From the IMG/VR virus record IMGVR_UViG_3300045988_158900: 37,614 nucleotides of DNA, one strand, 5' to 3'. The notes below the pieces were generated by a model. It searched no databases. It had not been told where the DNA came from and saw nothing but the letters and a program-made list of their open reading frames with translations. This document shows, piece by piece, positions 19,035 to 36,019 of the stretch (the first letter of the stretch is position 1; each line of letters begins with the position of its first letter). Both the position numbers and the translations under genes were made by a program. The stretch is from a virus.

Positions 19035-19355
19035 AGTTTTGGTGAGAGTTTGTACCAGCCAAACAAAAAAATAAAAATCAAAAAAAATTTTTTCCCGAAA
19101 CCCACCCCCCCCGGTCGGTTTTTATCTGAGAAAAAATCTGAACACTATCGAGGCCTTCTTGGGCTTGGCGCACGCGGAAAGGCTAGACCATCCCCAATAC
19201 AGCCCCTCAACTCACAGGACCGCGAATGGCTGTCGCGGTCCTCATTCGCAATAAATACAAACTCCACAAAAAATCTCTCGCAAATTTGTGTATTCTACCA
19301 ATAGACACGCATCCTGAAACGTGGTATAATAGCATTATCAAAGGAGGAATAGTCT

Positions 19356-19451
19356 ATGTCTATCATCTACAAAATCGTGCGCTTCATCGTTGCGGTCGCC
19401 GCTGTCGCGGGCATTGGCATCTTGATGTGCCTCATCTGCCTCCCTCACTGA
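19356..19451 (+). CDS. 31-aa hydrophobic peptide (MSIIYKIVRFIVAVAAVAGIGILMCLICLPH)
   Basis: Promoter ATAGACA-N17-TGGTATAAT and RBS AAAGGAGGAAT lie upstream. Terminator follows immediately downstream. Confidence 0.5.
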   Translation: MSIIYKIVRFIVAVAAVAGIGILMCLICLPH

Positions 19452-19463
19452 GGGAGGTTTTTT
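19438..19463 (+). terminator. Intrinsic terminator
   Basis: Hairpin CCTCCCTCACTGAGGGAGG followed by TTTTTT. Confidence 0.7.
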
Positions 19464-19474
19464 GTTGCCCTAAG

Positions 19475-20266
19475 ATTGTTAAAAATTTAACGATGTAGCA
19501 AGATTGTTAAAAGATTAACAATGTAGCGAGATTGTTAAATTTTTAACAATCACTCAACCAAGAGAGGACAAGGACACACACGGCATAGTGGACAAGGAGA
19601 GCGAGCCAATGAGCGAGCGACCAACAGACAAAGAGAACAACACACAACACAACACAATGATAGATACATTGTTAATGTATTAACAATGTAGTATAGTAGT
19701 ATGGTATGGTAGTAGATGGGGCAGGGGTGGGCTATGGGTAGTGGGTAGGGAGAGAGAGTAGACCGACAATAAGAGATGCGGACGCGCTTCCCACCGGTCG
19801 GCTCACCGGGAACCGCGCACCACAAATCTAATGTAGGTATTCTATTTCTCTTTTGAGTTCATCATCGTTAACGGCCCTAATCGCCCAAGAATAAGCCCTC
19901 GCACAATTGCCAAACAATACAGCGGCGCAGGCGCTGAACAGCGCGCATCCCGCAACACACAGTCCTCACAGAGGGGCGAGCAAGATTGTTAAAAATTTAA
20001 CAATGTGAGAGCCAAGAGCAAGAGAGTAAGGAGTGCGCTTGCACAGGTAGCAAGGAGGACACGCACGGCACTGTTGATACATTCGCTGACCGAGCAAGAT
20101 TGTTAAAAAATTCACAATGTGTGGATGTAGTGAATGTGCTGTTTAATTGTTAAAAATTTCACATTCGCTGTTGGATGCCGAACACGGTCGCCGCGCTCCT
20201 AACTTCACCACGTTAAAGTGATAAAGAAAAAAAATCGCAAATCCGATTGTTAAAATAATCACAATC
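19475..20266. promoter_or_regulatory. Array of 8 palindromic operator-like sites, consensus ATTGTTAAA-N2-TTTAACAAT, with a ninth copy at 21108-21126
   Basis: Sites at 19475-19494, 19503-19522, 19530-19551 (perfect 10-bp arms), 19666-19689 (ACATTGTTAAT-GT-ATTAACAATGT), 19985-20004, 20099-20118, 20145-20165 and 20246-20266. Several are preceded by GAGCAAG. The whole 19453-20290 region is non-coding. Confidence 0.7.
19718..19750 (+). other. G-quadruplex-forming motif within a C-depleted G/T/A tract
   Basis: Six runs of G3-4 within 33 nt (ATGGGGCAGGGGTGGGCTATGGGTAGTGGGTAGGG). The flanking 19685-19761 stretch has only 2 C. The preceding 19555-19657 stretch has only about 4 T. Confidence 0.5.
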
Positions 20267-20306
20267 TCTGTCCCGAAAATAAATAGGTTATTTTTGAAAA
20301 AACCTC

Positions 20307-20335
20307 TTGACAAATTGCCCTATGTGTGCTACAAT
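20307..20335 (+). promoter_or_regulatory. Consensus promoter (TTGACA-N17-TGcTACAAT)
   Basis: Exact TTGACA at 20307, 17-nt spacer, extended -10. Confidence 0.6.
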
Positions 20336-20365
20336 GATTACAGTAAAACAAAGGAGGACGATACA

Positions 20366-20602
20366 ATGTCTAACATCTATGGAGTCTGCTACACCACGAA
20401 AGAGCCTGTTGTCTACAACAGAGGGACACAGTGGGAGAAAACCTGTTCCGACTTCCTGTTCGTTCAGGCAAACAAGGACAATGGCACAAAGCTGGTGGAT
20501 AAACTGAACGCTATGCTTGCCGAGGGTGTGGAAAAGTACGAACTGCTGGACATGACAAAGATTGACCATTTCTATCTTGACAAGTCCGAGGAAATGTATT
20601 AA
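20366..20602 (+). CDS. Hypothetical small protein, 78 aa
   Basis: RBS AAAGGAGG lies 7 nt before ATG at 20366. The track frame carries a 5-prime extension that lacks an RBS. Confidence 0.6.
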   Translation: MSNIYGVCYTTKEPVVYNRGTQWEKTCSDFLFVQANKDNGTKLVDKLNAMLAEGVEKYELLDMTKIDHFYLDKSEEMY

Positions 20603-20615
20603 GGAGGAAATGACT

Positions 20616-20804
20616 ATGACACGCACTATCGCTAATACCTACATCTGTATCAACGCCGAGGGGCAGACGCTCTCCATCATCGCCCGCACGGGCAACGAAG
20701 CCCACAACATCGCAATAGGGTTTTTGCGGAAAGCCAACATCGTGAGCGTTCGCCGTGTATTCAAGTCCGGCAAGCTGGGCAAGGAAATTCTGAAAATTAA
20801 ATAA
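20616..20804 (+). CDS. Hypothetical small protein, 62 aa
   Basis: RBS AAGGAGG lies 8 nt before ATG at 20616. Terminator follows. Confidence 0.55.
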   Translation: MTRTIANTYICINAEGQTLSIIARTGNEAHNIAIGFLRKANIVSVRRVFKSGKLGKEILKIK

Positions 20805-20808
20805 CATA

Positions 20809-20834
20809 AACAGGGCGCAAGCCCTGTTTATTTT
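20809..20834 (+). terminator. Intrinsic terminator
   Basis: Hairpin AACAGGGCGCAAGCCCTGTT followed by TTATTTT. Confidence 0.7.
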
Positions 20835-20843
20835 GAAAAAACT

Positions 20844-20872
20844 ATTGACAAACACAAATAAGCGTGTTATAA
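20844..20872 (+). promoter_or_regulatory. Consensus promoter (TTGACA-N17-TGtTATAAT)
   Basis: Exact -35 and -10 hexamers with extended -10. Confidence 0.6.
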
Positions 20873-20905
20873 TAAATACAGAAATTAAGAAATGAGGTAC
20901 GCAAA

Positions 20906-21094
20906 ATGAAGAACATCTATGAAATCGAGAACATCATCGACGAAATCCCCGCTGATGACTGGGCTGGCATTTGTAATCTGATGGACTACTACTATCAGTC
21001 GAATTTCTCCGCTGACGCTGAACAGAGACTGGCAAGGGCAATTGCTCCTTACGGCTTGACCGCAGAGGAAATCCTGGCCTGGGACGCTGAGTAA
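20906..21094 (+). CDS. Hypothetical small acidic protein, 62 aa
   Basis: Track ORF with RBS AAATGAGG upstream. Confidence 0.55.
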   Translation: MKNIYEIENIIDEIPADDWAGICNLMDYYYQSNFSADAEQRLARAIAPYGLTAEEILAWDAE

Positions 21095-21138
21095 GCGTCC
21101 TATTTTTTTGCGGTTGGATTGTTAAAACTTTAACGAGC

Positions 21139-21203
21139 ATCGTCGCGCTCATCAGGCACGTGGCGCCCCGAAATATTATACCACAACAGCCCACCAGTTG
21201 TCA
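21139..21203. repeat. Half copy (right arm plus hairpin) of the palindromic promoter element, carrying a leftward consensus promoter
   Basis: Minus strand reads CTTGACA-ACTGGTGGGCTGTTGTGG-TATAAT, facing a GC hairpin. Confidence 0.5.
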
Positions 21204-21324
21204 AGAGAAAAATGCGAAAATTTTGCACAAAATTTGCTATCCCGATTTGTGTAGTTTGCCAATAGACAAAATGAAATAAGCGTGTTATAATGAATACAAC
21301 AAAAACAACAAAGGAGATACACAC

Positions 21325-21633
21325 ATGATTAACATTCGTTCTATCCGCAAGCTGGGCAATAATGACGGGCTGACCCTCAAAATGGGCAAAAAGGTAAACT
21401 ATAAATCCGGCTGGCAGGTTGCCACAGAGGGCATCGAGTGTAAGACCGCACAAGAAGCCATTGACGCGGTGAGAGACTACGGCGGCAATTGTGGCGTGTG
21501 GTTCAGCGAGGGCATTTATTACATCGACAAAAGCAAGCGCGTGGCGACAAAGCGCGAGGCTATGGAAATCGGCAAAGCGTGCAATCAAATTTCCGTGCTG
21601 AAATGGGCGACTATGACGCTTGCCTACTGTTAA
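21325..21633 (+). CDS. Hypothetical protein, 102 aa
   Basis: Track ORF. Promoter ATAGACA-N17-TGTTATAAT and RBS AAAGGAGA upstream. Terminator follows at 21638-21670. Confidence 0.6.
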   Translation: MINIRSIRKLGNNDGLTLKMGKKVNYKSGWQVATEGIECKTAQEAIDAVRDYGGNCGVWFSEGIYYIDKSKRVATKREAMEIGKACNQISVLKWATMTLAYC

Positions 21634-21637
21634 AATA

Positions 21638-21670
21638 ATAGGGCGAAAGCCCTATTTTTTTTTTATTTTT
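21638..21670 (+). terminator. Intrinsic terminator
   Basis: Hairpin ATAGGGCGAAAGCCCTAT followed by a T-run. Confidence 0.7.
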
Positions 21671-21742
21671 TTTGAAAAAACTATTGACAAATCGCGTTTA
21701 ACCTGCTATAATTAAACCATCAAAAGAGAGGAGCTAAACGCT

Positions 21743-21934
21743 ATGACAAACTTTGAACAGTATCTCGAAAACCTGATGGGCATGAAGAAAGCGGAAATCA
21801 TCAACGAGGGCATCACCTGGGGCATCTGGGCGAACACCGAGGGCAACAAAGCCGAGTTGATGAAATGGAAAAAAGTTCTGCTGGCGCGTTCCCTCGCCGA
21901 CCGGCTGGAAAGACTGGAAAAGCGGGGCTACTAA
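21743..21934 (+). CDS. Hypothetical small protein, 63 aa
   Basis: Track ORF. Promoter TTGACA-N17-TGCTATAAT at 21685 and RBS AGAGAGGAG. Terminator at 21936-21962 (ACAAGGGCGAAAGCCCTTGT followed by T8). Confidence 0.6.
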   Translation: MTNFEQYLENLMGMKKAEIINEGITWGIWANTEGNKAELMKWKKVLLARSLADRLERLEKRGY

Positions 21935-22008
21935 GACAAGGGCGAAAGCCCTTGTTTTTTTTATATGGCATTATGCCCATAATTCGGTTGGAAATTTTGG
22001 TGATTTTG

Positions 22009-22112
22009 CCTATTGACATCCTGCCCCATTTATGTTATACTCGGTCGCGCGCCCACGGCCCTGGCGCGCGAAATTTACCATTATACCATGTCCCAGCAAT
22101 TTTGTCAATAGG
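22009..22112. repeat. Palindromic promoter element copy 1 (PE1): face-to-face consensus promoters flanking a GC hairpin
   Basis: CCTATTGACA...TGTTATACT on plus, a GC hairpin (GTCGCGCGCC cacggccct GGCGCGCGA), and the reverse complement of TTGACA-N17-TGGTATAAT on minus, ending ..TTGTCAATAGG. Confidence 0.65.
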
Positions 22113-22140
22113 CAAATCAAACAAAAATCATACATTCTGA

Positions 22141-22164
22141 ATCCCGAAATTTGTGCATTTTGAC
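22141..22164 (+). promoter_or_regulatory. Conserved upstream box ATCCCGAAATTTGTGCATTTTGAC preceding a class-2 promoter. Example of about 9 copies.
   Basis: Variants of the same motif recur 20-40 bp after each palindromic element, at about 21247, 23192, 24978, 26877, 29294, 30933, 32235, 33892 and 34989. Confidence 0.5.
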
Positions 22165-22224
22165 TATTGACATTCACGCGCCCCTGTGCTATACTGTATA
22201 CATAAAACAGAGGAAGTCATGAGT

Positions 22225-22497
22225 ATGACGCGTGAGTACAAGGTTCGGTTCATCGACAGCGAAGCCCAGCATAGCGAGACTGCCACTATCCAGTGGGATG
22301 TTGATACCAGCATCTGCGACCTTATCGAGGAACAGCTCTATATCCTGTGGGAGTTGCGCCCTTTGGAGCGTGAGTGGCGGAGACAGTTCTGTACCAATGG
22401 TTGGACGCGGTTTATATATGGCCTATATGAGCAGTTTTCTGTGTCCTATCCCTGGGATAATTCCAATATCATCACCGTTGAAAAAATCCAGGCTTGA
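22225..22497 (+). CDS. Hypothetical protein, 90 aa
   Basis: Promoter TTGACA-N17-TGCTATACT and RBS GAGGAAG lie 8 nt before ATG at 22225. Terminator CCAGGCTTGACCTGG followed by a T-run overlaps the stop. Confidence 0.55.
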   Translation: MTREYKVRFIDSEAQHSETATIQWDVDTSICDLIEEQLYILWELRPLEREWRRQFCTNGWTRFIYGLYEQFSVSYPWDNSNIITVEKIQA

Positions 22498-22577
22498 CCT
22501 GGATTTTTTTATTTTATGCTTGACAACAACCAATAGGTGTGCTATAATTGTATTATCAAATGAGGGAGGTATTCAAG

Positions 22578-22799
22578 ATGGAATACAGTGTGGTAGTCAA
22601 TAATGTTGAGGTCGTGCGCGTGAGCGGTGATGAAGCCGCGTGGAACAAGTTTGAAATGGCGTGTGAGTTGGTGCGGCTGATGCTGGCTGATGGTGGCTTT
22701 GGTGAAGCGTGGGCTGAACTCCGCGAGATGAACAGCGAACCTATCGCCCGCTTTGATGAAAAGGGTATGAGCGAGTGCGGCGCAGTCCGCGGAATGTGA
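22578..22799 (+). CDS. Hypothetical protein, 73 aa
   Basis: Promoter CTTGACA-N17-TGCTATAAT and RBS GAGGGAGG before ATG at 22578. Confidence 0.55.
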   Translation: MEYSVVVNNVEVVRVSGDEAAWNKFEMACELVRLMLADGGFGEAWAELREMNSEPIARFDEKGMSECGAVRGM

Positions 22800-22809
22800 G
22801 GTGCGACAA

Positions 22810-23007
22810 ATGAACGCTAAGGGATACACATTTTGCGGCGGAGCTGATGAACGGGATGTTCTCCGCTATGGCGAGTACCTGACCGATGAACAGTATACCA
22901 CATGGGACAAGCACTATTACCGCCTGCGCGCTATCCGCTACAACGGTAAACTGTACTGGCACAAGATGGTGGACGGCGAACTGGTTGAATTTAAGGTTTT
23001 GATTTAA
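22810..23007 (+). CDS. Hypothetical protein, 65 aa
   Basis: RBS GAGGTG lies 7 nt before ATG at 22810. Terminator GAGCCAAAATTTGGCTC followed by T7. Confidence 0.5.
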   Translation: MNAKGYTFCGGADERDVLRYGEYLTDEQYTTWDKHYYRLRAIRYNGKLYWHKMVDGELVEFKVLI

Positions 23008-23050
23008 TAATAAATGAGCCAAAATTTGGCTCATTTTTTTGTGCATTTTG

Positions 23051-23153
23051 CCTATTGACAAAATAGCATTTTTATGGTATAATTTTGGCCGCGCGTCTAC
23101 GACCCTGACGCGCGGAAATTCCATTATACCACAGCCCAGCCAATTTGTCAAGC
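23051..23153. repeat. Palindromic promoter element copy 2 (PE2)
   Basis: Same architecture: CCTATTGACA-N17-TGGTATAAT, hairpin GGCCGCGCG tctacgaccctga CGCGCGG, then reversed TATAAT/TTGACA. Confidence 0.65.
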
Positions 23154-23269
23154 ATTTTGTGTTCGGTATTTTCAACAATTTTTTATCCCGAAATTTGTGC
23201 AATTTGACGGTTGACAATGCTCAGTAGGTATGCTATACTTATACCATCAATTAAAGGAGGTCATTCACA

Positions 23270-23446
23270 ATGGCTACTATCGCAATCCTCGCAATCCTCG
23301 CCCTCGCTGGCTTTGCTGGCGTTCAGTGTGTCGGCGGGTATATGGTCTATCGTCAGACGCACGACTGGCACTTCCTCATTGGCTCTATCCTATATGGCGT
23401 TGCCTGTATCGGTCTGGTGCGCTTCGTGTTCAATATGGGGTGGTAA
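23270..23446 (+). CDS. 58-aa small membrane protein (MATIAILAILALAGFAGV...)
   Basis: Promoter GTTGACA-N17-TGCTATACT and RBS AAAGGAGG lie 8 nt before ATG. Two hydrophobic segments. Below the track length cutoff. Confidence 0.55.
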   Translation: MATIAILAILALAGFAGVQCVGGYMVYRQTHDWHFLIGSILYGVACIGLVRFVFNMGW

Positions 23447-23447
23447 T

Positions 23448-23771
23448 ATGGAAAACTACACTATGTCGAACCATCTGACAGAGGAGCGGGCTAACCGACT
23501 CGCCCTCTTACAGGAATACCTCGGATATTCCGACCGCGTGATGATTGAGGTCATTGACCAACGCCAAACCGCCCGTCTGCGTTTGCTCTCGACTGGCATC
23601 ATCTTGGTGCTGGACTTATATGAGAATTTCATCATCACCGCATACCCCGCAACTTTTGAACGGGCTGTCGCTATATACAAGAGTGCGGGCAAAAACCGTC
23701 TGCCCCAGCAGTTGGTCAAACGCATTCGCAAGAATGAGGAACGCCACCCTGAATTTTATGTGGTGAAGTAG
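23448..23771 (+). CDS. Hypothetical protein, 107 aa. The only island gene ending in TAG.
   Basis: ATG lies 1 nt after the upstream TAA. The 5-prime part of track ORF 23211..23771 overlaps the membrane peptide and lacks an RBS, so the start was moved to 23448. Confidence 0.5.
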   Translation: MENYTMSNHLTEERANRLALLQEYLGYSDRVMIEVIDQRQTARLRLLSTGIILVLDLYENFIITAYPATFERAVAIYKSAGKNRLPQQLVKRIRKNEERHPEFYVVK

Positions 23772-23842
23772 AAAATTGGGGCTTGACAAACAAGCCCCTA
23801 TCTGCTATAATAAATAATACCAAGAGAAAGGAGAATACCAAA

Positions 23843-24073
23843 ATGGAATTTATTGAACCCCCTATCTATGTCAAGTTGAGCGATGAAGAGCGCAATTCAC
23901 TCCATGAAGCCTATGTTATTCTAAATGACCTCGCGACTGCCGCCGAAGAAGATGACAGCGAATACATTGGCAACCCGCTAACTGGTGATGGCTATGGGCG
24001 GTTTGATGTGAGCCAAGCCGCTGAAATCTGCCGAGTGTTCGCGCCTGCTGAAAAACTGGAAATTAGTAATTGA
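23843..24073 (+). CDS. Small acidic protein family, copy 1 of 3 tandem paralogs (76 aa)
   Basis: RBS GAAAGGAGAAT. The segment EPPIYVKLSDEERNSLHEAYVILNDL aligns with copies 2 and 3. Confidence 0.6.
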   Translation: MEFIEPPIYVKLSDEERNSLHEAYVILNDLATAAEEDDSEYIGNPLTGDGYGRFDVSQAAEICRVFAPAEKLEISN

Positions 24074-24087
24074 GGGAGGAAAACAAA

Positions 24088-24315
24088 ATGGAAGTTATTA
24101 AACCCCCCATCTATGTCAAAATGACAGAGAAGGAGCGGAAAACCCTGCGCGATGCCTATGATATTCTGAATGAACTGTATGACGTCATCGCCGATAATGA
24201 CTGCGAGTATGTGAGCGATACTTGCGGGAATAACTATGACAGAGTGGACGTTGCGCTTACGGCTAATGTGCTTCAAATGCTTGCCCCCACTGAAAAAGTG
24301 GAAATCGGCAAATAA
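24088..24315 (+). CDS. Small acidic protein family, copy 2 of 3 (75 aa)
   Basis: RBS GAGGGAGG. The segment KPPIYVKMTEKERKTLRDAYDILNEL aligns with copy 1. Confidence 0.6.
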   Translation: MEVIKPPIYVKMTEKERKTLRDAYDILNELYDVIADNDCEYVSDTCGNNYDRVDVALTANVLQMLAPTEKVEIGK

Positions 24316-24330
24316 AAGGAGGTAAAACAA

Positions 24331-24561
24331 ATGAACATCATTACCTCAAACGTTCAGGTTCAACTCACCCAAGAGGAGAAGGACAAACTCCAAGACGCCC
24401 GCGAGGTTATTTCTCACCTGTTTGATTTGATGTATGACTACGAACAAGAATACGCTATTTCCAACATTGGCGAAAAGTATTCTATGGGCCAAGTCCGTGA
24501 TACCTCAAACCTGCTGGCCGCGCTTATCGGGTCTGATAAAATGCGGTTAGAAAATAAATAA
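24331..24561 (+). CDS. Small acidic protein family, copy 3 of 3 (76 aa)
   Basis: RBS AAAGGAGG. Same length and conserved ..LT.EE...L.DA..V...L..... pattern. Terminator at 24567-24591 is directly followed by the next -35 hexamer. Confidence 0.5.
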   Translation: MNIITSNVQVQLTQEEKDKLQDAREVISHLFDLMYDYEQEYAISNIGEKYSMGQVRDTSNLLAALIGSDKMRLENK

Positions 24562-24649
24562 AAAAAATGTGGGAGAAATCCCACATTTTTTATTGACAAC
24601 ACAACCAGTAGGTGTAGTATAATGTAGACAATGAAACAAGGAGGTAACA

Positions 24650-24856
24650 ATGACCACATTTCAAATTCGAGAGGAACTGGCGAACCGCTACAATTTAGAA
24701 ATCCGCAATGTCTGCTGTTATCACTGTGAATACTGGGGCTACAACCGCGGCAAGGTGCTGAATAGCGTGGGCGAGAGTAAATGTATGAAGCGCAAGAACG
24801 AGCGCACTTGGTGTCGTCAATTCTGCCGGGGTTTCGTTCCGAAATCAGGAAAATAA
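24650..24856 (+). CDS. Cys-rich zinc-binding small protein, 68 aa
   Basis: Track ORF with RBS AAGGAGG. Cysteine pattern CC-H-C ... C..C...C. Sequence MTTFQIREELANRYNLEIRNVCCYHCEYW... Confidence 0.55.
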   Translation: MTTFQIREELANRYNLEIRNVCCYHCEYWGYNRGKVLNSVGESKCMKRKNERTWCRQFCRGFVPKSGK

Positions 24857-24907
24857 ATCATTTGGGCTGGATAAACAAAAATCCAGCCCAATTTTTGTAT
24901 AATTTTC

Positions 24908-24966
24908 CACTTGACATTTTCGGCCGCGCGCTCACGAATGTGGCGCCCGGCATTTTTGTCAATAGG
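24908..24966. repeat. Palindromic promoter element copy 3 (truncated: arms plus hairpin, without -10 boxes)
   Basis: CCACTTGACA, hairpin, then ATTTTTGTCAATAGG. On plus the hairpin is followed by T5, so it is terminator-like. Confidence 0.5.
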
Positions 24967-25068
24967 TATACTTCACAAATTTTTCACCGCAATTTTGTGC
25001 ATTTTGACGATTGACTTCTATCCCGTAATACGGTATAATGGCTATACTGAAACAAGGAGGTAAGAACA

Positions 25069-25287
25069 ATGGAGTTGAAGAAAGCGTATCAGATGGTTTT
25101 CAGCGACCTGCATAATTGTCCTATGTTCCAAGGGCGGTATGACGCCATCAATGGCAATCCCTACTTTATGTTCGGCATTGAGACGGTTATGGAGGTAATC
25201 GCCAATCGCGCCTATGATGATGATTTTACCGAGAATTTCTCCAATGAATTTACTGACAATATGTTAAGGAGTAGAGAAAGTGTTTAA
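25069..25287 (+). CDS. Hypothetical protein, 72 aa
   Basis: Box plus promoter GATTGACT-N17-CGGTATAAT and RBS AAGGAGG. Track ORF. Confidence 0.55.
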   Translation: MELKKAYQMVFSDLHNCPMFQGRYDAINGNPYFMFGIETVMEVIANRAYDDDFTENFSNEFTDNMLRSRESV

Positions 25288-26294: not shown

Positions 26295-26307
26295 GGAGGG
26301 CGCGACA

Positions 26308-29365: not shown

Positions 29366-29925
29366 GTCAAGAGGGAGTGAGACCCCGTGGGCTGGGCTAA
29401 TGGTATGTAATGTCCCAAGTGTAAGTGAGAGCGCGCCGTACTGAAAAAAAAGACCAAAATTCCCTCTTGACAAACTCCATCAAAGGTGCTATAATGGGTA
29501 GTGTCAAGAGGGGAACGGCACGGCAGATGCGTCTAATGTGTCGCCTGTGTAGACAGGTTTCAGAAATTTGGAAAAATTTCAAAAAACCTCTTGACAAACC
29601 CCAACACCTGTGTTATAATTGATAATGTCAAGAGGGGAACAGCCCCACCCAAGAAATCCGCGGGTCGCGAACCGTGAGAGAGTAAAGGAAGTAAGCCCTA
29701 TACCAGCGCAGTAATCCCAAACGATGAACGAAAAGTGAGTGGATTGGTCAGTTCGTCCATGCGCATGGAAACGTTGAACCAACAAGCAACACCTTATTCG
29801 TCAGGCGAGGTTGTAAGTCGTTGTGAATACTTGTGGGACGTTCCCCTGTTGGCACTATTAAAAAAAATCAAGAATTTTGAAAAAAAGTCTTGACAATCCC
29901 AGCGTAAGCTGTTATAATAGATAAT
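29366..29925 (+). ncRNA. Tandem array of three promoter-driven small structured RNAs (about 105, 85 and 265 nt) with a conserved 5-prime AAUGUCAAGAGGG(G)AAC leader
   Basis: Promoters at 29318-29359, 29467-29495 and 29591-29619, each TTGACA-N17-TATAAT. Each transcript 5-prime GUCAAGAGGG can pair with the CCCUCUUGAC that forms the next -35 region. No ORF longer than 10 codons. Tiny GTG-started ORF (M)GWANGM at 29387-29410. Confidence 0.5.
29890..29918 (+). promoter_or_regulatory. Consensus promoter of cassette 1 (TTGACA-N17-TATAAT)
   Basis: Exact hexamers. The transcript begins AAUGUCAGGAGGGCAAAGCCCUC (5-prime hairpin) before the RBS. Confidence 0.6.
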
Positions 29926-29974
29926 GTCAGGAGGGCAAAGCCCTCAAAACCAAATGGAGAAAGGAATTGATACT

Positions 29975-30355
29975 ATGGCTAACACTAACACCACCACCCG
30001 CAAGCCCACCAAACGCGACAATTTCACCGCCCTGCTCAAGCTGTCCGAGGTCAAGGCTGACCCCAAGCTGGTGGAGTTCATCACCCACGAAATCGACCTG
30101 CTCGACCGCAAGAACACCGTGGACAAGAAGCCCACCAAGACCCAGCAGGAGAATGAGGCCATCAAGACCACTGTCCTGTCCGCTATGGAGAGCAACCGGC
30201 TGTATTCCATCAGCGAGATGCTCAAAGAGTTCCCCGTCTGCAAGGACATGAGCAATCAGAAGCTGTCCTCTCTGGTGCGGCAGATGGTGCTGGATAAGCA
30301 GGTGGAGCGCGTGGAGGACAAGCGCAAGGCGTTCTTCCGCAAGGTGAGCGCGTAA
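29975..30355 (+). CDS. Cassette protein A1, 126 aa (paralog of A2)
   Basis: RBS GAAAGGAATTGATACT-ATG. Conserved with A2: TKRD.FTALLK, ELLDRKNTVDKKPT.TQ, SNQK.SSLVRQMVLD.Q..R.EDKRKA.F. Confidence 0.6.
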   Translation: MANTNTTTRKPTKRDNFTALLKLSEVKADPKLVEFITHEIDLLDRKNTVDKKPTKTQQENEAIKTTVLSAMESNRLYSISEMLKEFPVCKDMSNQKLSSLVRQMVLDKQVERVEDKRKAFFRKVSA

Positions 30356-30406
30356 ACCTCAAAGGGTGGGGAGCAATCCCCACCCTAACCCTGAAAGGAG
30401 TACCGC

Positions 30407-30763
30407 ATGACTGACCGAGTTGCCGACCTCATGCGAAAGCTGGATTGTACCGAAGCCGAAGCCAAGGACATTATTGTTCAAGATGCTATCATCGACAAGG
30501 GCGGCAATCCATTTCCGCTGACCGAGGAACAGGAAAAGGCAAGCAAGAAAGCGCGGGGAGTAGGACGCCAGCCGACCGCATACAAGTTCGCGCCAAAAGA
30601 AAGAAAGGCTAATCTCACAAAGCAGGGCATTATCACCCTACTGACCGAGACACTGACCACATACGGCGCGACTGACCTGAACGTGAGCAACGTGGAGCGC
30701 GAATTTTTATTCACGCTTGATGGAACAAAATACAAGGTTGTGCTGTCGTGTCCGCGCAAGTGA
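30407..30763 (+). CDS. Cassette protein B1, 118 aa (paralog of B2)
   Basis: RBS GAAAGGAG. Conserved with B2: PTAYKF..(K/R)ERKAN.TK..II..L. Terminators flank the gene. Confidence 0.6.
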   Translation: MTDRVADLMRKLDCTEAEAKDIIVQDAIIDKGGNPFPLTEEQEKASKKARGVGRQPTAYKFAPKERKANLTKQGIITLLTETLTTYGATDLNVSNVEREFLFTLDGTKYKVVLSCPRK

Positions 30764-30801
30764 GGGAGAGAAATTCTCCCTCATTTTTTTTGTGTATTTT
30801 G

Positions 30802-30903
30802 ACTATTGACAAATTTGGGCGCGTGTGGTATAATTCGGTCGCGCGTCCACGTATGTGGCGCTCGAAATTTCTATTATACACCCCATTGGCAATTTTGTCA
30901 AGC
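30802..30903. repeat. Palindromic promoter element copy 6 (PE6)
   Basis: GACTATTGACA-N17-TGGTATAAT, GC hairpin with loop CCACGTATGTG, reversed promoter ending TTGTCAAGCG. Confidence 0.6.
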
Positions 30904-31013
30904 GTTTTTTTACACAAATTTCAAAGATTGAAAATCCCGTTTTTTGTAGGTATTGCCTATTGTAATTCTCCTGTAATGTGCTATAATGATGATACTGAAA
31001 GGAGCGATGAACG

Positions 31014-31697
31014 ATGGAGTTTCCGAGAGTTCAGGATTTTATCCTGACCATTCAGCAGGCGGTGTCTAAAAAACCGCGTTTGGTCAACCGCGCTGATGAC
31101 CTGTGCCGAGTTATCCACAACACATACCCTGATGTCAAGATAATCACCAGCAACGGCGCAAGCAAGGAATGTCTGGTGTTCCCTGAGTTGGGCTATGTCC
31201 TCAAATGGTCTATGGAGACGCGGGACGCAGAGCGCGAAGTGGCTGTGTATCAGAAAGCCGTAGACGCAAACCTCGCTGATTTTTTCCCCGCCACTATGCT
31301 GGCTGGCTACATTGTTCCCCCGCGCAAGTGTGATAATCCTGTTGCATTTACCGCACAACAGATTATTAACACCAGTGCCCATAAAATCCATTGGAGTAAG
31401 GGCGGGTTGAAAACTCGTCTTTCGCGTATCGCACAGACTGTCCCCGATTGTCGTATTTCTCAGATTGAACGGCAGTTCCGCAAAGCTGATGTTAATGGCT
31501 ATGGGCGCGACCTCGATGGGCTATGGGCGAAAGTTGCCGTTTCTATCTACGGTAAGCGCAAGGTTATCGCCCTCTGTGAGTTCGTTAAAAAGTATCACAT
31601 CAATGACCTCCACGGCTCAAATATCGGCTACATTGGCATCTTTCCTGTTATCCTCGATTTCTCCGGCTATGGCGTCTGTGATGGTTTAGAGTTTTGA
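31014..31697 (+). CDS. Hypothetical protein, 227 aa
   Basis: Box plus promoter TATTGTAA-N17-TGCTATAAT and RBS GAAAGGAG. Track ORF. ATG at 31005 in another frame gives only 20 aa. Confidence 0.55.
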   Translation: MEFPRVQDFILTIQQAVSKKPRLVNRADDLCRVIHNTYPDVKIITSNGASKECLVFPELGYVLKWSMETRDAEREVAVYQKAVDANLADFFPATMLAGYIVPPRKCDNPVAFTAQQIINTSAHKIHWSKGGLKTRLSRIAQTVPDCRISQIERQFRKADVNGYGRDLDGLWAKVAVSIYGKRKVIALCEFVKKYHINDLHGSNIGYIGIFPVILDFSGYGVCDGLEF

Positions 31698-31741
31698 AAA
31701 AAACTCTTGACAAACAGCCCCGCCTGTGCTATACTAACATC

Positions 31742-32095
31742 GTGAGGTGAGAAAAATGAAATGGCGATTGTATCGTCCCCCTTAGTAATCAATCTATGAT
31801 TATTGATTAGATATATTTATAGATTGATTAAGACCCCAGCCAAGATGGAGTTTAATAGAGTGTTTGTCCCACTCAATAATTTCTTCTCAACCGCCATCTT
31901 GAACCCCTCGTTAGAAATTGGGACTGGGTACGAAGTTCTAACCACATTCACCGTGTGCCGAGAAAGACCCTCCATAGTGGGCTTTGCGCCCCGGTTTTGG
32001 GTCTACTGTGTAGAAGTGGGCTGGCTGTCCGGACGGCTGGCGAACATCAACAGGGGAACCAGCGTAGTAGCCAACTACGCTGGTTTATTTTTGTT
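31742..32095 (+). ncRNA. About 350-nt promoter-to-terminator non-coding transcript with a 9-codon leader ORF MKWRLYRPP (31756-31785, TAG stop)
   Basis: Promoter TTGACA(31707)-N17-TGCTATACT(31730). Terminator CAGCGTAGTAGCCAACTACGCTGG followed by a T-run at 32060-32100. Only a 9-codon ORF has an RBS (GAGGTGAGAAAA-ATG). The track ORF 31803..32132 lacks an RBS and reads through the terminator. Confidence 0.45.
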
Positions 32096-32102
32096 TATTT
32101 TG

Positions 32103-32203
32103 CCTATTGACAAATGCGCTCGAATGTGTTAAAATGGGTCGGGCGCTCACGGCTGTGGCGCCCGAAATTTCCATTATACCACGTGGCACAAATTTTGTCA
32201 AGT
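32103..32203. repeat. Palindromic promoter element copy 7 (PE7)
   Basis: CCTATTGACA-N17-TGTTAAAAT, hairpin TCGGGCGC tcacggctgtg GCGCCCGA, reversed TATAAT..TTGTCAAGTG. Confidence 0.65.
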
Positions 32204-32294
32204 GTTTTTTTGCACAAATTTTGAATGTTGAAAATCCCATTTTTTGTGAGTATTGACTATTGTAATTTGCCCAAGGGTGTGGTAATATATAATT

Positions 32295-32440
32295 GTTCCA
32301 AGGGAGAGGGTAAGACCTCCGGCGGGGCGTGTACCTTAAAAAAAAATTCCACAAATCCGAAAAAAAGTCTTGACAAGGCTTCGGATATGTGTTAGAATAT
32401 AGATGTTCCAAGAGGGAAACAACAATATGGTGGGCGACAC
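32295..32440 (+). ncRNA. Two tandem small RNAs with an UUGUUCCAAG(G)GAG leader variant and a 5-codon uORF MVGDT preceding cassette 2
   Basis: Promoters at about 32253-32289 and 32370-32398 (TTGACA-N17-TAGAAT). Same organisation as 29366-29925. Confidence 0.4.
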
Positions 32441-32466
32441 CTAAAAACGCAGAAAGGGTTGATACT

Positions 32467-32919
32467 ATGACTGCTATCACTTCCACCGCTAACCGCCGTA
32501 TGACCAAGCGGGACTACTTCACCGCCCTCAAAACCTTTGCCGAGGTGGGCGAGTTCAAGTTCCCCATTTCCCAGCGTATCGGCACTTCCGAGGACTTCGA
32601 GACTGTCTATGTGGACATTTCTCCCGCAGAGATAGCGGAGTTCGCCAAGCATGAGCTGGAACTGCTCGACCGCAAGAACACCGTGGACAAGAAGCCGACC
32701 GCCACGCAGGTGGCAAACGAGGGTATCAAGGCTGACATCAAAGCGTTTCTGGACGCCCACAAGGGCGAGAAGTACACCGTGTCTGCTCTGATGAAGTCTG
32801 TTCCCACTATCGCCGATGCGTCCAATCAGAAGGTTTCTTCTCTGGTGCGTCAGATGGTGCTGGACGGTCAGGCAGACCGTATCGAGGATAAGCGCAAGGC
32901 GTATTTCACCGCCAAGTAA
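32467..32919 (+). CDS. Cassette protein A2, 150 aa (paralog of A1)
   Basis: RBS AAAGGGTTGATACT-ATG, identical spacing to A1 and the NT5C gene. Terminator GGGGGGGAGATATTCTCCCCCC follows. Confidence 0.6.
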   Translation: MTAITSTANRRMTKRDYFTALKTFAEVGEFKFPISQRIGTSEDFETVYVDISPAEIAEFAKHELELLDRKNTVDKKPTATQVANEGIKADIKAFLDAHKGEKYTVSALMKSVPTIADASNQKVSSLVRQMVLDGQADRIEDKRKAYFTAK

Positions 32920-32977
32920 GGTATGGGGGGGAGATATTCTCCCCCCTATCCCCTAAAATCTGAAAAGGCGGTGTTTT

Positions 32978-33376
32978 ATGGCTGAAATCTCCAAAACCGA
33001 ATGGCTGAAAAACGCTATGGCGAAAATGGGCTGGACTGCCGATGAAGCGGAAGCCGTGTGGAACTCTGACCGAGAAATCGACAAGGGCAAGGCACAGGAT
33101 TTTGACCTGTCGAAAGAACAGCTCAAAATTGCCCAAAAATTCGCCAAGACTGGCACTCGCAAGACCCCCACCGCATACAAATTCACTACGAGGGAACGCA
33201 AGGCAAATCCCACGAAAGCGTCCATTATCGCTGAACTCGCAACATTTTTGACCGAAAACAGCGAAAATGCCTGCGAAAATGTGGAAATTACCAACAAAGA
33301 GCGTCAAATTGCGTTCAAAATCGGTGAAAATTCCTATGAACTGACTCTTGTGCAGAAGCGCAAGCCGAAAAGTTGA
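32978..33376 (+). CDS. Cassette protein B2, 132 aa (paralog of B1)
   Basis: Track ORF. Conserved PTAYKFTTRERKANPTKASIIAEL with B1. Confidence 0.55.
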   Translation: MAEISKTEWLKNAMAKMGWTADEAEAVWNSDREIDKGKAQDFDLSKEQLKIAQKFAKTGTRKTPTAYKFTTRERKANPTKASIIAELATFLTENSENACENVEITNKERQIAFKIGENSYELTLVQKRKPKS

Positions 33377-33426
33377 GAAAATGGGGGAGAAATCCCCCAT
33401 TTTCCCCAGAAAACGAGGAAAAAAGT

Positions 33427-33771
33427 GTGAAAAACAAGGAATTTTTGTATGTAGGGCACTATTATGATGAAAATGGCGTATACATTCTGAAAATAGGCAC
33501 TACTAATGACTTAAAGCGCAGACAGCAGGAACACACGAGAAACTACCGCAAGACCGCCGTTCACCGTTTACCGCACAATTCTGAATTTATTTACGATTTT
33601 TCGCTACCGCTTTCCAAGTATAATACTTTGCGATACGAGGACAAAAACCGTGAGAAATGGCAGAAAATGGGATACGGTGTGTTTGTGAGAAATGACAGAT
33701 TTGCATGTCCTGTGAAGCCAAAATCTGTTGAAATTACCATTCGTCGAACTTACCAAATCGCTCTCGATTGA
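33427..33771 (+). CDS. GIY-YIG domain protein (T5orf172-like), 114 aa, GTG start
   Basis: RBS GAGGAA 6 nt before GTG. Motif LYVGHYYDENGVYILKIGTTNDLKRRQQEH matches GIY..(10)..YIG.T.NL.RR..EH. Confidence 0.55.
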   Translation: MKNKEFLYVGHYYDENGVYILKIGTTNDLKRRQQEHTRNYRKTAVHRLPHNSEFIYDFSLPLSKYNTLRYEDKNREKWQKMGYGVFVRNDRFACPVKPKSVEITIRRTYQIALD

Positions 33772-33794
33772 GGGCGATTTTTTTATTCAATTTG

Positions 33795-33870
33795 ACTATT
33801 GACAACGCCCTCTGACTGTGGTATAATGGGTCGGGCGCTCACGGATGTGGCGCCCGGCATTTTTGTCAAG
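33795..33870. repeat. Palindromic promoter element copy 8 (right arm truncated)
   Basis: GACTATTGACA-N17-TGGTATAAT, hairpin CGGGCGC tcacggatgtg GCGCCCG, then CATTTTTGTCAAG. Confidence 0.55.
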
Positions 33871-33994
33871 ATACATTTTCAACAATTTTTCCGGCGAAAA
33901 TTTGTATAAATTGACTATTGCATTTTGTCCCGAAATGCGCTATACTATAAACAATCTGAGGGAGCTGGAACCCACCAACAGCACGGAGGCATTT

Positions 33995-34606
33995 ATGAAT
34001 AAGAGCCAGTTTTTTGACCACGAAATCGAGTTCATTCAGTCCGAGGATTTGCGCTCATTCGTGCGCTACTACTTCGACTGTATCGTTCCCGACTATTTCT
34101 GGACTATCGGCGCAAGTTCTTCCGGCAAGTTCCATCCGGCTATGAGCCAAGGCGAGGGCGGTTTGGTGCGCCACACTAAGGCGGTCGCGTGGTTTTGCGA
34201 GGAATTGCTCCGCATGAGCCAGTGGGCGTATCTCACTGACGAGCGCAAGGACTACGCAAGAGTTGCCTGTCTGCTCCACGATACCGCCAAGTATGGCTTA
34301 CACGAGTTCGACAAGGAGTTGTACCCCAAGCACGGGGCTATGGCGGCTGACCAAGTTCGCCGTTCGTGGCTGGTATTTTTCGAGAATGACTGCCCCTATG
34401 AGTTGACGCAAGCCATCAAGTCCCACATGGGTCAGTGGACTACCGACAAGGCGGACAGACCTTTCACTCCTATCGACAGACTGGTACACATGGCTGACTA
34501 TGTGGCAAGCCGTTCGTTCATCGACATTCCGGCAATTAACGCTGACTATAACGACAAGGCGGAACTGGACGAAATTTCGCCTGAACTGCCGTGGGAGGAG
34601 GAATAA
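33995..34606 (+). CDS. HD-domain metal-dependent phosphohydrolase, 203 aa
   Basis: H..(about 35)..HD motif (FHPAMSQGEGGLVRHTKAV ... CLLHDTAKY). Box plus promoter ATTGCAT-N17-CGCTATACT. The leader contains CCCACCAACAGCACGGAGG, related to the exonuclease leader. Confidence 0.65.
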   Translation: MNKSQFFDHEIEFIQSEDLRSFVRYYFDCIVPDYFWTIGASSSGKFHPAMSQGEGGLVRHTKAVAWFCEELLRMSQWAYLTDERKDYARVACLLHDTAKYGLHEFDKELYPKHGAMAADQVRRSWLVFFENDCPYELTQAIKSHMGQWTTDKADRPFTPIDRLVHMADYVASRSFIDIPAINADYNDKAELDEISPELPWEEE

Positions 34607-34608
34607 TC

Positions 34609-34743
34609 GTGACCCCTAAATTTTACTTCAACGCTGACGAGAATGTATGCGCGAGTGAGCACTGGGTCATCCAGTATCTCCACATACAAAATCCCGACAT
34701 AGACGAGGATGAAATCGAGGGCGAACTCCACTCCCGCCGGTAA
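34609..34743 (+). CDS. Small acidic protein, 44 aa, GTG start overlapping the HD gene stop
   Basis: RBS GGGAGGAGGAATAATC-GTG. Sequence MTPKFYFNADENVCASEHWVIQYLHIQNPDIDEDEIEGELHSRR. Below the track cutoff. Confidence 0.4.
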   Translation: MTPKFYFNADENVCASEHWVIQYLHIQNPDIDEDEIEGELHSRR

Positions 34744-34837
34744 TATTTCGGTTGGTATGAGTGTCAAATGTCCGATGACATTTTCAACAACTTTTGTTAA
34801 AGGTGGAGAAATCCACCTTTAATTTTTGTTCATTTTG

Positions 34838-34950
34838 CCTATTGACAACGCGAGCCCAGTGTGGTATAATAAAAGGGGAGGTGCAACGGGCCGAGCGCGG
34901 GCGCTGCGGTCCGAATTTCCATTCTCCCACCCCATATGGAAAATTTTCCG
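34838..34950. repeat. Palindromic promoter element copy 9 (degenerate right arm). Followed by three CATATG-containing palindromes at 34933-35010.
   Basis: CCTATTGACA-N17-TGGTATAAT, GC hairpin GGCCGAGCGCGGGCGCTGCGGTCC, then GAATTTCCATTCTCCCACC. Confidence 0.45.
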
Positions 34951-35144
34951 TGATTCTAGCGGCCTTCATATGCGCCCATATTTTCCCGAAAATCCGAGCC
35001 CCGCTCGGTACTCATATGCCGCCCGGTTTGACATAAAAAAAAATTTATGTTATAATGATAAAAAAAACCATTTTTTTTCTCACTTGACTTTTAAAAAAAT
35101 TTTTTGTATAATATATGTATACAAAATGAAAAGAGGTTATTTAT

Positions 35145-35519
35145 ATGAATAAGAACGATATTCTGACGCGCTTAATGAATGGCGAGAGCGCTGAGGATAT
35201 TGCTAAGGAAATGACTGCGATGCTGAATGACGCCACTAAGGCATATGCTGACCAGAAGAAGGACAAGGAAAAGATGGCCCGAGCGGAAGCGGTTGCCGAT
35301 ACTATCAACGACTATGCGGCCTACGTCGGCTATAAGGGCGCAGAGTTGAAGGGTGAGGACGTCATTAAGGTTATGGACAGTTTCCTTAAATTCTACAAGG
35401 ACCCAGGTAATTTCAAAATTGAACTCCCCGGTTTCCGTTTTGAAACAAACTCTAAGGGTGCGATTAAGAAGGGCAAAACCGTTGATGAAATCATCAACGA
35501 CTGGATTTCTCGCATTTAA
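35145..35519 (+). CDS. Hypothetical protein, 124 aa (last island gene, with an AT-rich promoter)
   Basis: Track ORF. Promoter CTTGACT-N17-TGTATAAT and RBS AAAGAGG. Strong terminator at 35533-35595. Confidence 0.55.
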   Translation: MNKNDILTRLMNGESAEDIAKEMTAMLNDATKAYADQKKDKEKMARAEAVADTINDYAAYVGYKGAELKGEDVIKVMDSFLKFYKDPGNFKIELPGFRFETNSKGAIKKGKTVDEIINDWISRI

Positions 35520-35532
35520 TTTCGAATAACGT

Positions 35533-35595
35533 GTCGGCCCAGGTATTTTTCATTTGGGAAATTGGCAATTAGAATACCTGGGCTCGACGTTTTTT
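35533..35595 (+). terminator. Strong intrinsic terminator
   Basis: Long hairpin GTCGGCCCAGGTAT...ATACCTGGGCTCGAC followed by TTTTTT. Confidence 0.7.
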
Positions 35596-35677
35596 GGAAA
35601 GGGTGTCTCGAAAAATTCAGAAGATGACGATAACGATAAAATTGAGTGATAAATTGATACCGAGCGGGGGGCACCAA

Positions 35678-35791
35678 ACTCCCATCATTTTCTTTCACTC
35701 CCATCATTTTCTTTCACTCCCATCATTTTCTTTCACTCCCATCATTTTCTTTCACTCCCATCATTTTCTTTCACTCCCATCATTTTCTTTC
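35678..35791. repeat. Perfect tandem repeat, 19 bp x 6 (ACTCCCATCATTTTCTTTC), at the island right boundary
   Basis: Six identical head-to-tail units with no spacers. Confidence 0.85.
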
Positions 35792-36019
35792 AAAGTTATT
35801 ATCATTATCAATTTCTAACATTTTGTTATTAAGAGGAAACATTATAAGGTTCCATTATTCGTTGTTTACAATTATATTCATCAAACCCCGCTAATAGGTT
35901 TATTTAATTATGATTTAGTTTTTGTAAAGGTAAAACAATAATCAAACCTCAGATTCAAAAAAACGTTATAAGTCAAAATGCATTAAAAAAATGGAGTGGT
36001 TTATCGCCACTCCATTTTT

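Follow-up and report, generated by a model that had tools for sequence, protein, structure and literature searches.

A GC-rich, promoter-dense array of small standard-code genes in a TAG-recoded gut phage is probably an early, host-takeover-type module

The IMG/VR virus record IMGVR_UViG_3300045988_158900 includes a 37,614-nt stretch of DNA (the window, analysed here over its whole length) from a phage with a ~197-kb genome in which TAG appears to be recoded to glutamine (Gln). We studied a GC-rich block of ~16.6 kb in this window, called at 19100..35680 (+) from the GC profile in 1-kb sliding windows. The block, 8.5% of the genome, carries small genes written in the standard code behind consensus promoters. 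We consider it likely, with a probability of roughly 70%, that the block is an early module of the host-takeover type of a human-gut Bacillota phage, and not foreign DNA.

The change in composition is abrupt and affects coding and non-coding DNA. GC content stays at 43-51% per 1-kb window from ~19.1 to ~35.5 kb, against 25-41% in the left 19 kb and 27-35% in the right 1.8 kb; the means are 46.3% for the block, 31.7% for the left flank and 29.0% for the right flank. The switch takes ~200 nt at the left edge (19.1-19.2 kb) and ~300 nt at the right edge (35.5-35.8 kb). GC content at third codon positions (GC3) is 0.62 in the block versus 0.21 in the late genes, and at four-fold sites 0.66 versus 0.16. 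Promoter spacers have 46.6% GC inside the block versus 20% outside; other non-coding stretches have 44-57%, and intergenic GC within the block is 0.41-0.50.

Genetic code separates the same two parts of the window. With TAG read as a sense codon, the minus strand at 441-17077 holds 15 tightly abutting open reading frames (ORFs), including those for terminase, portal and virion proteins; the PHROG matches that identify these products arise only with TAG read-through. Over the 5183 codons of the 15 late genes there are 60 in-frame TAG, and no late gene ends in TAG. The 34 block ORFs (g1 to g34 in the list below) have no in-frame TAG in 3407 codons; the rate seen in the late genes predicts 39 (P ~7e-18). 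Their stop codons are TAA (22 ORFs), TGA (11) and TAG (one); the sole TAG-terminated ORF, g11, has a back-up TGA 5 codons downstream. Within a sigma-like protein of the AT-rich part, three of the four TAG positions (a small sample) align with Gln in the relative L010, which has no TAG sense codons; from this alignment we take TAG to be reassigned to Gln in the AT-rich genes.

Codon preference differs as well. The block prefers NNC, CTG, GGC, CGC, AAG and CAG, and the TAG-containing late genes use A/T-ending codons throughout. Four genes of the virion/head region (2119-3195 and 6628-9363, minus strand) have no TAG, a GC content of 37-41% and codons that are strongly NNT plus AAG and CAG. Three codon regimes (block, TAG-containing late genes, TAG-free virion genes) coexist in the window. 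The TAG-free virion genes are presumably the most highly expressed late genes; it looks as if such genes avoid the recoded codon.

A consensus scan detected 94 sigma-70-like sites (39.4 ± 7.1 in shuffled sequences) and 44 terminator-like sites (20.7 ± 5.1 in shuffles). Sites scoring at least 11/12 are concentrated in the block, with 37 inside it and 5 in the remaining 20.8 kb. The block promoters comprise 24 perfect TTGACA-N17-TATAAT sequences (12/12; chance expectation ~0.006) and 13 near-perfect ones; most have a TGn extension and an A/T-rich upstream tract. AAGGAGG-type Shine-Dalgarno sequences are frequent before the ORFs. The ~34 small plus-strand ORFs are arranged in ~24 transcription units (TUs) of 1-3 genes with ~17 hairpin terminators between them, and 62% of the block is coding, 38% non-coding. 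Seven of the perfect promoters are on the minus strand and drive no ORF. At 23778-23811, 26080-26115, 27445-27480, 28206-28239 and 28494-28532 the −35 TTGACA is in the loop of a GGGG...CCCC hairpin; these sites are compact fusions of the preceding stem-loop with the promoter of the next unit.

Comparison of block ORFs with homologues in relatives gave 1126, 741 and 3172 substitutions at codon positions 1, 2 and 3, and 1698 synonymous versus 698 non-synonymous codon changes. This pattern points to real genes under purifying selection. Public gene calls on independent contigs agree with the ORFs called here.

A preliminary description of the window, made without database searches, had reported a GC jump from ~30% to ~50%; the jump is real and the upper figure is slightly high. 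The dichotomy in code and composition that it described, and its picture of small plus-strand genes in the standard code, were borne out, and all evidence from the sequence is consistent with early genes, as it had suggested. It had further stated that every gene is individually framed by a promoter, a Shine-Dalgarno sequence and a terminator: the architecture is there, but the ORFs sit in units of one to three. Its near-perfect promoters were also found, but the minus-strand ones lack a gene.

The features of the block and of its immediate surroundings are as follows.

19302..19458 (+): TU1; promoter 19302-19330; g1 19356-19451, a 31-aa hydrophobic peptide; terminator 19438-19458
19475..20265: palindrome stretch without ORF or promoter; 8 copies, with a 9th copy at 21118; operator-like
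20307..20831 (+): TU2; promoter 20307; g2 20366-20602; g3 20616-20804; terminator 20806-20831
20845..21102 (+): TU3; perfect promoter 20845; g4 20906-21094; terminator 21080-21102
21175..21204 (-): single perfect promoter in reverse orientation, directed at a GC hairpin
from 21263 (+): TU4; promoter 21263; g5 21325-21633, kept in distant relatives; terminator 21637-21656
21684..21958 (+): TU5; promoter 21684; g6 21743-21934; terminator 21933-21958
22013..22108: face-to-face promoter pair with GC hairpin, copy 1
from 22167 (+): TU6; promoter 22167; g7 22219-22497
22520..23036 (+): TU7; promoter 22520; g8 22578-22799; g9 22810-23007
23055..23151: face-to-face promoter pair with GC hairpin, copy 2
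23211..23798 (+): TU8; promoter 23211; g10 23270-23446; g11 23448-23771; hairpin 23778-23798, which encloses the next −35 hexamer
23783..24591 (+): TU9; perfect promoter 23783; paralogues g12, g13 and g14 23843-24561; bidirectional terminator 24562-24591
from 24593 (+): TU10; g15 24650-24856; degenerate hairpin element 24911-24965
to 25474 (+): TU11; promoter 25011; g16 and g17 25069-25465
from 25552 (+): TU12; g18 25608-26078, a membrane protein
to 26733 (+): TU13; promoter 26087; g19, g20 and g21 26145-26705; bidirectional terminator 26704-26733
26750..26844: face-to-face promoter pair with GC hairpin, copy 3
26926..27432 (+): TU14; perfect promoter; g22 26986-27432
27452..28201 (+): TU15; perfect promoter; 65-nt leader with a 10-codon upstream ORF (uORF) 27509-27541; g23 27545-28201
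from 28211 (+): TU16; perfect promoter 28211 with its −35 in a GC hairpin loop; g24 28269-28484
28504..29158 (+): TU17; perfect promoter 28504 with its −35 in a GC hairpin loop; g25 28559-29089; terminator 29129-29158
29177..29271: face-to-face promoter pair with GC hairpin, copy 4
29330..30786 (+): tandem-promoter unit; promoters 29330 (weak), 29467, 29591 and 29890 (perfect); g26 29975-30355; g27 30407-30763; terminator 30758-30786
30806..30901: face-to-face promoter pair with GC hairpin, copy 5
30960..31697 (+): g28 unit; promoter 30960; g28 31014-31697
31707..32092 (+): non-coding unit; promoter 31707; ~350-nt transcript; strong terminator 32056-32086
32107..32201: face-to-face promoter pair with GC hairpin, copy 6
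32370..33780 (+): g29-g31 unit; promoter 32370; g29 32467-32919, paralogue of g26; g30 32978-33376, paralogue of g27; g31 33427-33771; terminator 33755-33780
33799..34823 (+): g32-g33 unit; perfect promoter 33799 with hairpin (truncated element); g32 33995-34606; g33 34609-34743; terminator 34796-34823
34842..35597 (+): g34 unit; promoters 34842, 35028 and 35084; GC-rich non-coding DNA 34871-35027; g34 35145-35519; terminal hairpin and T-run
35678..35791: 19-bp x6 tandem repeat at the right GC boundary; assemblies break here
15998..17116 (-): sigma-like gene heading the TAG-recoded terminase/structural operon; perfect sigma-70-type promoter 17116-17088, divergent from the block
17172..18982 (+): AT-rich small genes between the late operon and the block; AbrB/MazE-fold protein 18439-18756 with one in-frame TAG

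Among the encoded proteins, g22 is an NT5C-type 5'(3')-deoxyribonucleotidase (PF06941 at 4e-6; phrog_2643 at 9e-12, category host takeover), g32 is an HD phosphohydrolase (PF01966 at 6e-10; phrog_5889 at 2e-43) and g31 has a T5orf172 domain. The best-conserved gene of the block is g23, with 596 homologue clusters, some of them labelled DNA polymerase III epsilon-like. The g23 protein was modelled from database homologues with a predicted local distance difference test (pLDDT) value of 89. The model matches DEDD 3'-5' exonucleases (3'hExo/ERI, RNase T, oligoribonuclease, ExoI) with probability ~1 and template-modelling (TM) scores of 0.5-0.57, and the acidic and His residues are invariant; the predicted fold is thus that of a DEDD(h) 3'-5' exonuclease. 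Upstream of g23 a conserved leader module, ATGGTAAGCCC(A/C)ACCAA(G/C)AGAAAAGGAGAA, forms the uORF (MVSPTKRKGE). The same sequence is fused in frame at the N-terminus of g25 (28559-28594), and a related motif, CCCACCAACAG, lies upstream of g32.

Gene g28 is confined to its clade: it was found only at 73% identity or above, yet in 143 clusters from many samples. Its product contains the motif HINDLHGSNIGY...ILDFSG. The AlphaFold model is of low confidence (pLDDT 59) and its matches are weak, but all of them are aminoglycoside phosphotransferase (APH)/protein-kinase folds, a hint that g28 is possibly kinase-like. Many Logan contigs with g28 are ~2.5 kb long, presumably owing to breaks at flanking repeats. 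Sequence searches of the PDB with g28 and with a g23 profile gave no match, and Pfam searches with further ORFs gave sub-threshold noise only.

The sigma-like protein encoded next to the late operon belongs to a PHROG family annotated 'sigma factor'; Pfam found no sigma domain in it. Its gene has both in-frame TAG codons and a perfect promoter, which suggests translational, code-dependent gating of a late regulator.

One repeated unit is the face-to-face pair of consensus promoters, present in six complete copies of ~95 bp. Between the two −10 hexamers, at a distance of 37-39 nt, stands a GC hairpin of 8-9 bp. Another forward promoter comes ~154 nt after the first, and some units form ~185-bp forward-reverse-forward modules; no ORF is driven by the reverse promoters. 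Variants were found at 21138-21204, 24911-24965 and 33799-33870. The unit is also present in the relatives L008, L009, L014, L050, L061, L096, L102 and L112; it recurs in distant lineages, one of them AT-rich. Among 16 different copies, taken from the window and from relatives, the hexamers do not vary and the stem covaries: 89.6% of cells are paired versus 28-42% with slid partners, compensatory changes occur in 6 of 9 stem pairs and the covariation score is 0.48 versus 0.19 in shuffles. Transcription from the reverse promoter might give an RNA of ~100 nt that stops at the bidirectional terminator upstream; other conceivable roles are insulation of units by collision and stimulation of the divergent promoter downstream.

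A second repeated element is a 20-bp palindrome, ATTGTTAA-N4-TTAACAAT, with nine copies in the window (18 strand-matches versus 0.05 expected), eight of them in the 0.8-kb stretch at the left edge of the block. The motif recurs in some lineages (as pairs in L065 and L069) and is absent from others; by arrangement the palindromes may be operator-like sites.

Two regions are likely to be transcribed without being translated. The non-coding unit has its own promoter and strong terminator, and its ~350-nt transcript (31742-32092) is structured with z = -3.95. A structured leader of 0.6 kb (29360-29960) is served by four tandem promoters, whose RNAs start with AATGTCAAGAGGGGAAC; in the 250-nt version of this leader the 5' and 3' ends close in a stem (z = -3.1). 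Rfam was searched with gathering and with permissive thresholds; no credible RNA family turned up in the block, both non-coding transcripts included.

The block is not peculiar to one assembly. Seven IMG/VR contigs (100-198 kb), ~90% identical to the window, span one or both of its junctions, and human-gut contigs in ENA and Logan carry the region too; sample SAMEA3449300, for one, has it on a 194-kb scaffold. L002, L003, L005, L006 and L035-L041 run across the left junction, and L001, L002, L005-L007, L032 and L033 across the right one. These sequences differ in assembly and assembler, and both junctions are found again in 8 or more independent assemblies. In distant relatives, whose exonucleases have 61-68% protein identity, terminase, sigma-like gene and promoter array follow one another in this order. 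With the sigma-like protein as query 297 relatives were found, and all 51 of the 51 fully flanked loci (~23 lineages) have 7-22 co-oriented near-consensus promoters upstream of the sigma-like/terminase genes; arrays at this position include AT-rich ones. The preliminary description had raised the possibility of an assembly chimera. That the junctions fuse an AT-rich phage with an unrelated GC-richer genome is suggested by the sharp compositional boundaries only; with both junctions spanned so often and synteny extending to such distant relatives, we regard this as next to impossible.

The terminase groups with those of Geobacillus E3, large Bacillus siphoviruses, Lactococcus 949-like and SPbeta-like phages, and every terminase relative comes from a Bacillota phage. 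Among cultured phages Geobacillus virus E3 is nearest by terminase, and no comparable array lies beside its terminase gene. Matches in bacterial genomes were limited to three contigs of metagenome-assembled genomes (MAGs; Clostridia, Eubacteriales, Lachnospiraceae), of which the large one has a phage-type promoter array. Because of the terminase kinship, the style of promoters and Shine-Dalgarno sequences and the MAG matches, the host is probably a gut member of Bacillota, Clostridia. In L090-L094 and L010 (IMGVR_UViG_3300024272_001728 and relatives), close relatives of the family, the terminase and sigma-like genes are free of TAG sense codons. Both standard-code and code-15 phages thus belong to the family, which could serve to date the code change.

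Gene content within the array is variable. Relatives L002, L003 and L005 lack g7-g9 (22108-23036), and L002 also lacks g28 with the adjacent non-coding transcript (30966-32088). Other relatives at ~90% identity lack g4, g12, g14, g17, g20, g31 or g33, or have insertions of 0.2-1.2 kb. At both large deletions the alignments overlap by 113-244 nt within repeated promoter elements. Such repeats form families D1-D14 in the window, composites of promoter, AT tract and stem-loop situated between orphan genes. Alignment overlaps inside the repeats are the mark of homologous recombination between them, by which cassettes are gained and lost.

The GC difference itself varies between lineages. GC3 of the exonuclease orthologue is 0.22, 0.43, 0.45, 0.57, 0.62 or 0.67 depending on the lineage, while the late genes stay at 0.17-0.38. 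The early-minus-late difference in GC is +0.12 in the clade of the window, +0.05 to +0.09 in other strongly TAG-recoded lineages and 0 to +0.03 in four of five lineages essentially without TAG sense codons (the fifth, L063, has +0.07). Recoding and the GC gap are only weakly associated (rho 0.43 and p 0.04 over 23 lineages, uncorrected for phylogeny). High GC is a long-standing regional property of the block, shared by coding and non-coding DNA and evolving independently of the rest of the genome. As to its cause, we infer that the host-dependent compartment keeps host-like composition and codons, the recoded one, served by phage-controlled translation, being free to drift AT-rich; the cause may instead be regional mutation or gene conversion.

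The repeats at the edges of the block have little in common. The 19-bp repeat at the right boundary has a copy number of 6, 4 or 2 among relatives, and one relative has a different repeat; the 22-bp pair at the left (18982 and 19009) is a single copy in relatives. Both had been given as boundary marks in the preliminary description: the right one is real and varies in copy number, the left pair is not kept. We rejected these repeats as att sites, since left and right are unrelated to each other and neither is conserved; the earlier statement that no matching att repeats are present agrees with this.

Farther to the right, an ORF with in-frame TAG (36414-36935) includes a 107-bp direct repeat in two copies (36414-36620, minus strand), through which ~35 aa of the peptide occur twice. 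At 37270-37614, AT-rich non-coding DNA contains dense GGTTGTAA(T/A) iterons in both orientations beside a (TATATT)n tract, an origin-like arrangement. The 194-kb ENA scaffold ends at about the same place as the window, in the iteron array.

Two other explanations of the block deserve attention. It could be horizontally acquired DNA, from a GC-richer phage or a host, or a mobile or integrative element, as the word 'island' in the preliminary description implied. Coding and non-coding DNA both resemble an equilibrated genome of ~50% GC, the GC boundaries are sharp and gene content is mosaic; single cassettes quite possibly move between phages. Acquisition of the entire block, however, we find very improbable. 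The array is at the same position in every examined lineage of the 297-member family, AT-rich arrays included; the block is a syntenic, conserved module, and GC3 of its orthologues differs widely between lineages. Pfam and PHROG scans of the block ORFs revealed no integrase, transposase or recombinase, only the T5orf172 domain, in agreement with the earlier reading, and the boundary repeats are unrelated and not conserved. Megablast searches with the block gave no match in phage and plasmid collections, and no free-standing copy with a recombinase, of the kind named in the preliminary description, was found in viral, genome or plasmid collections; outside a phage context no copy turned up in phage, plasmid, viral-contig and genome collections.

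The block could also, on the pattern of T5 or SPO1, be a collapsed long terminal repeat or the genome end that enters first, with GC raised by frequent recombination (GC-biased gene conversion). This explanation is compatible with the early-gene reading and differs from it in the cause of the GC content and in the physical meaning of the boundaries. The block's share of the genome is close to the 7.9% of the T5 first-step-transfer region, it encodes a deoxyribonucleotidase (compare T5 dmp), and the untranslated palindrome-rich stretch at one edge recalls iss of T5 (10.1101/866236). At the opposite edge, in the variable tandem repeat, one contig ends and one scaffold is gapped; the raised non-coding GC fits a mutational or conversion cause, and the 197-kb contigs are mutually permuted, as expected of collapsed repeats or circular assemblies. 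Yet contig ends in the clade are scattered (window-equivalent ~22.1, 35.8, 36.4, 37.7 and ~39.5-40 kb), which led us to reject a terminal repeat as the main explanation. Further, no contig has a duplicated copy, the terminase is of the SPbeta / Geobacillus E3 / large Bacillus siphovirus type and not of the T5 or SPO1 type, palindromes in some relatives are spread through the array in operator-like pairs, and homologues of A1 and A2 were not found. We therefore judge this explanation improbable, less so than acquisition from outside.

Several points weigh against the block as an early, host-takeover-type module, too. The term 'early' is taken from promoter type, and the 'host-like' composition is an assumption about a host that is probably a member of Clostridia. 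No takeover function was seen among the small ORFs: all 20 of the 20 scanned were without a PHROG family. Operons with in-frame TAG, too, start from perfect sigma-70-type promoters (at 17116 and 1023), so that the contrast drawn earlier between block promoters and the polycistronic late operon is too sharp. No suppressor tRNA was detected in the window or in 16 neighbouring loci, and no tRNA of any kind in the window or in 15 related loci of 12-21 kb, a scan that leaves the other ~160 kb of the genome outside. Codons of the block (NNC, CTG, GGC, CGC) differ from those of the TAG-free capsid-region genes (NNT, CGT, GCT); the two have no common optimal codons, and simple tuning to one host tRNA pool is therefore insufficient. 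Selection on codon usage as the sole cause of the GC shift was rejected, promoter spacers and other non-coding DNA being shifted too.

As an early module the block might work in the following way. On entry, ~35 forward consensus promoters with extended −10 elements would capture the host sigma-A RNA polymerase. Each promoter feeds a micro-operon of 1-3 small ORFs with strong Shine-Dalgarno sequences, insulated by hairpin terminators. In the model of Borges et al., the absence of TAG sense codons would let the unmodified host translate the module. The nucleotidase, the exonuclease, the HD hydrolase, the possible kinase-like protein and ~28 orphans would then act on host nucleic acid, nucleotide pools or other targets. 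The AT-rich operons, with their sigma-A-type promoters, in-frame TAG and sigma-like regulator, would give full-length products only once TAG suppression is established. Because perfect sigma-70-type promoters are present on TAG operons, it may be translation, and not transcription, that times them. Comparison with relatives shows that the promoter/stem-loop units double as homologous recombination sites for gain and loss of cassettes.

A bolder version, possible but in our view doubtful, divides the genome into a compartment readable by a naive host, with the standard code, host-like GC and codon usage and consensus sigma-A promoters, and an AT-rich, takeover-only compartment with TAG=Gln and phage-controlled translation. 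The gap of 15 points in GC and 40 points in GC3 would then be adaptive, and through it stop-codon recoding as a temporal gate would be extended genome-wide; the face-to-face unit would be an undescribed regulatory/insulator module as well as a linker for cassette shuffling.

Recoded gut phages are thought to time late-gene expression by code change. The locus is a clean, abundant and family-wide example (hundreds of assemblies) of a host-readable compartment marked by code, composition and promoter type, and, since the GC gap varies by lineage, one can test how recoding, AT drift and reliance on host translation are connected. The ~28 orphan early proteins are candidate host-takeover or anti-defence factors for Clostridia, and the block is a natural library of ~40 near-perfect Gram-positive promoter/terminator parts, the face-to-face unit among them.

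The closest functional analogues appear to be SPO1's host-takeover module, the pre-early region of T5 and the hyperplastic regions of T4. The SPO1 module (genes 37-60) is summarized as 12.4 kb of DNA that holds 26 small early genes, their promoters and ribosome-binding sites being very strong (PMC6873191, citing Stewart et al. 1998). On that summary the two are alike in size (12-17 kb), in ~26-34 small and mostly orphan genes, in short operons with strong sigma-A promoters and ribosome-binding sites, and in a Bacillota host. They differ in phage lineage and in sequence: no homology to gp37-gp60 was seen, the small block ORFs having no PHROG matches and the larger ones matching unrelated families. 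In addition, the block has face-to-face promoter-hairpin units, and the scattered contig ends of its clade give no sign of terminal redundancy. To our knowledge, no contrast in GC or genetic code has been described in SPO1.

The T5 first-step-transfer region resembles the block in taking up ~8% of the genome, in its variable small ORFs with a deoxyribonucleotidase and in its palindrome-rich untranslated end (10.1101/866236); in the block, no A1/A2 homologues were found and the palindromes are not DnaA boxes. The promoter early stem-loops (PeSLs) of T4 are likewise composites, repeated between orphan early genes, in which a strong sigma-70 promoter is joined to a G/C stem-loop and to an AT-rich tract upstream, and indels between close relatives break inside the repeats (PMC2839356, PMC4122927). 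Here the host is Gram-positive and the terminase and portal are of large Bacillota siphovirus/SPbeta-like lineages, not T4-like; some block units are ~185-bp triple-promoter modules with a covarying hairpin and others have the −35 in a hairpin loop. By analogy, the block repeats seem to work like PeSLs without being members of that family.

Standard-code early genes together with recoded late genes were described in stop-codon-recoded gut phages by Borges et al. (10.1101/2021.08.26.457843). Those phages also have TAG sense codons concentrated in structural and packaging genes, a recoded part of low GC and a standard-code compartment that could be expressed before the code switch. The mentions of GC found in that text are whole-genome comparisons and GC skew only, with no within-genome split of ~15 points (GC3 0.62 versus 0.21), and the standard-code portion is a replication module; here it is a promoter-dense array of orphan genes. 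A promoter-dense, standard-code early array in a recoded phage is of a kind known in principle; less expected are the size and lineage dependence of the GC split, its extension into non-coding DNA and the face-to-face promoter-hairpin module.

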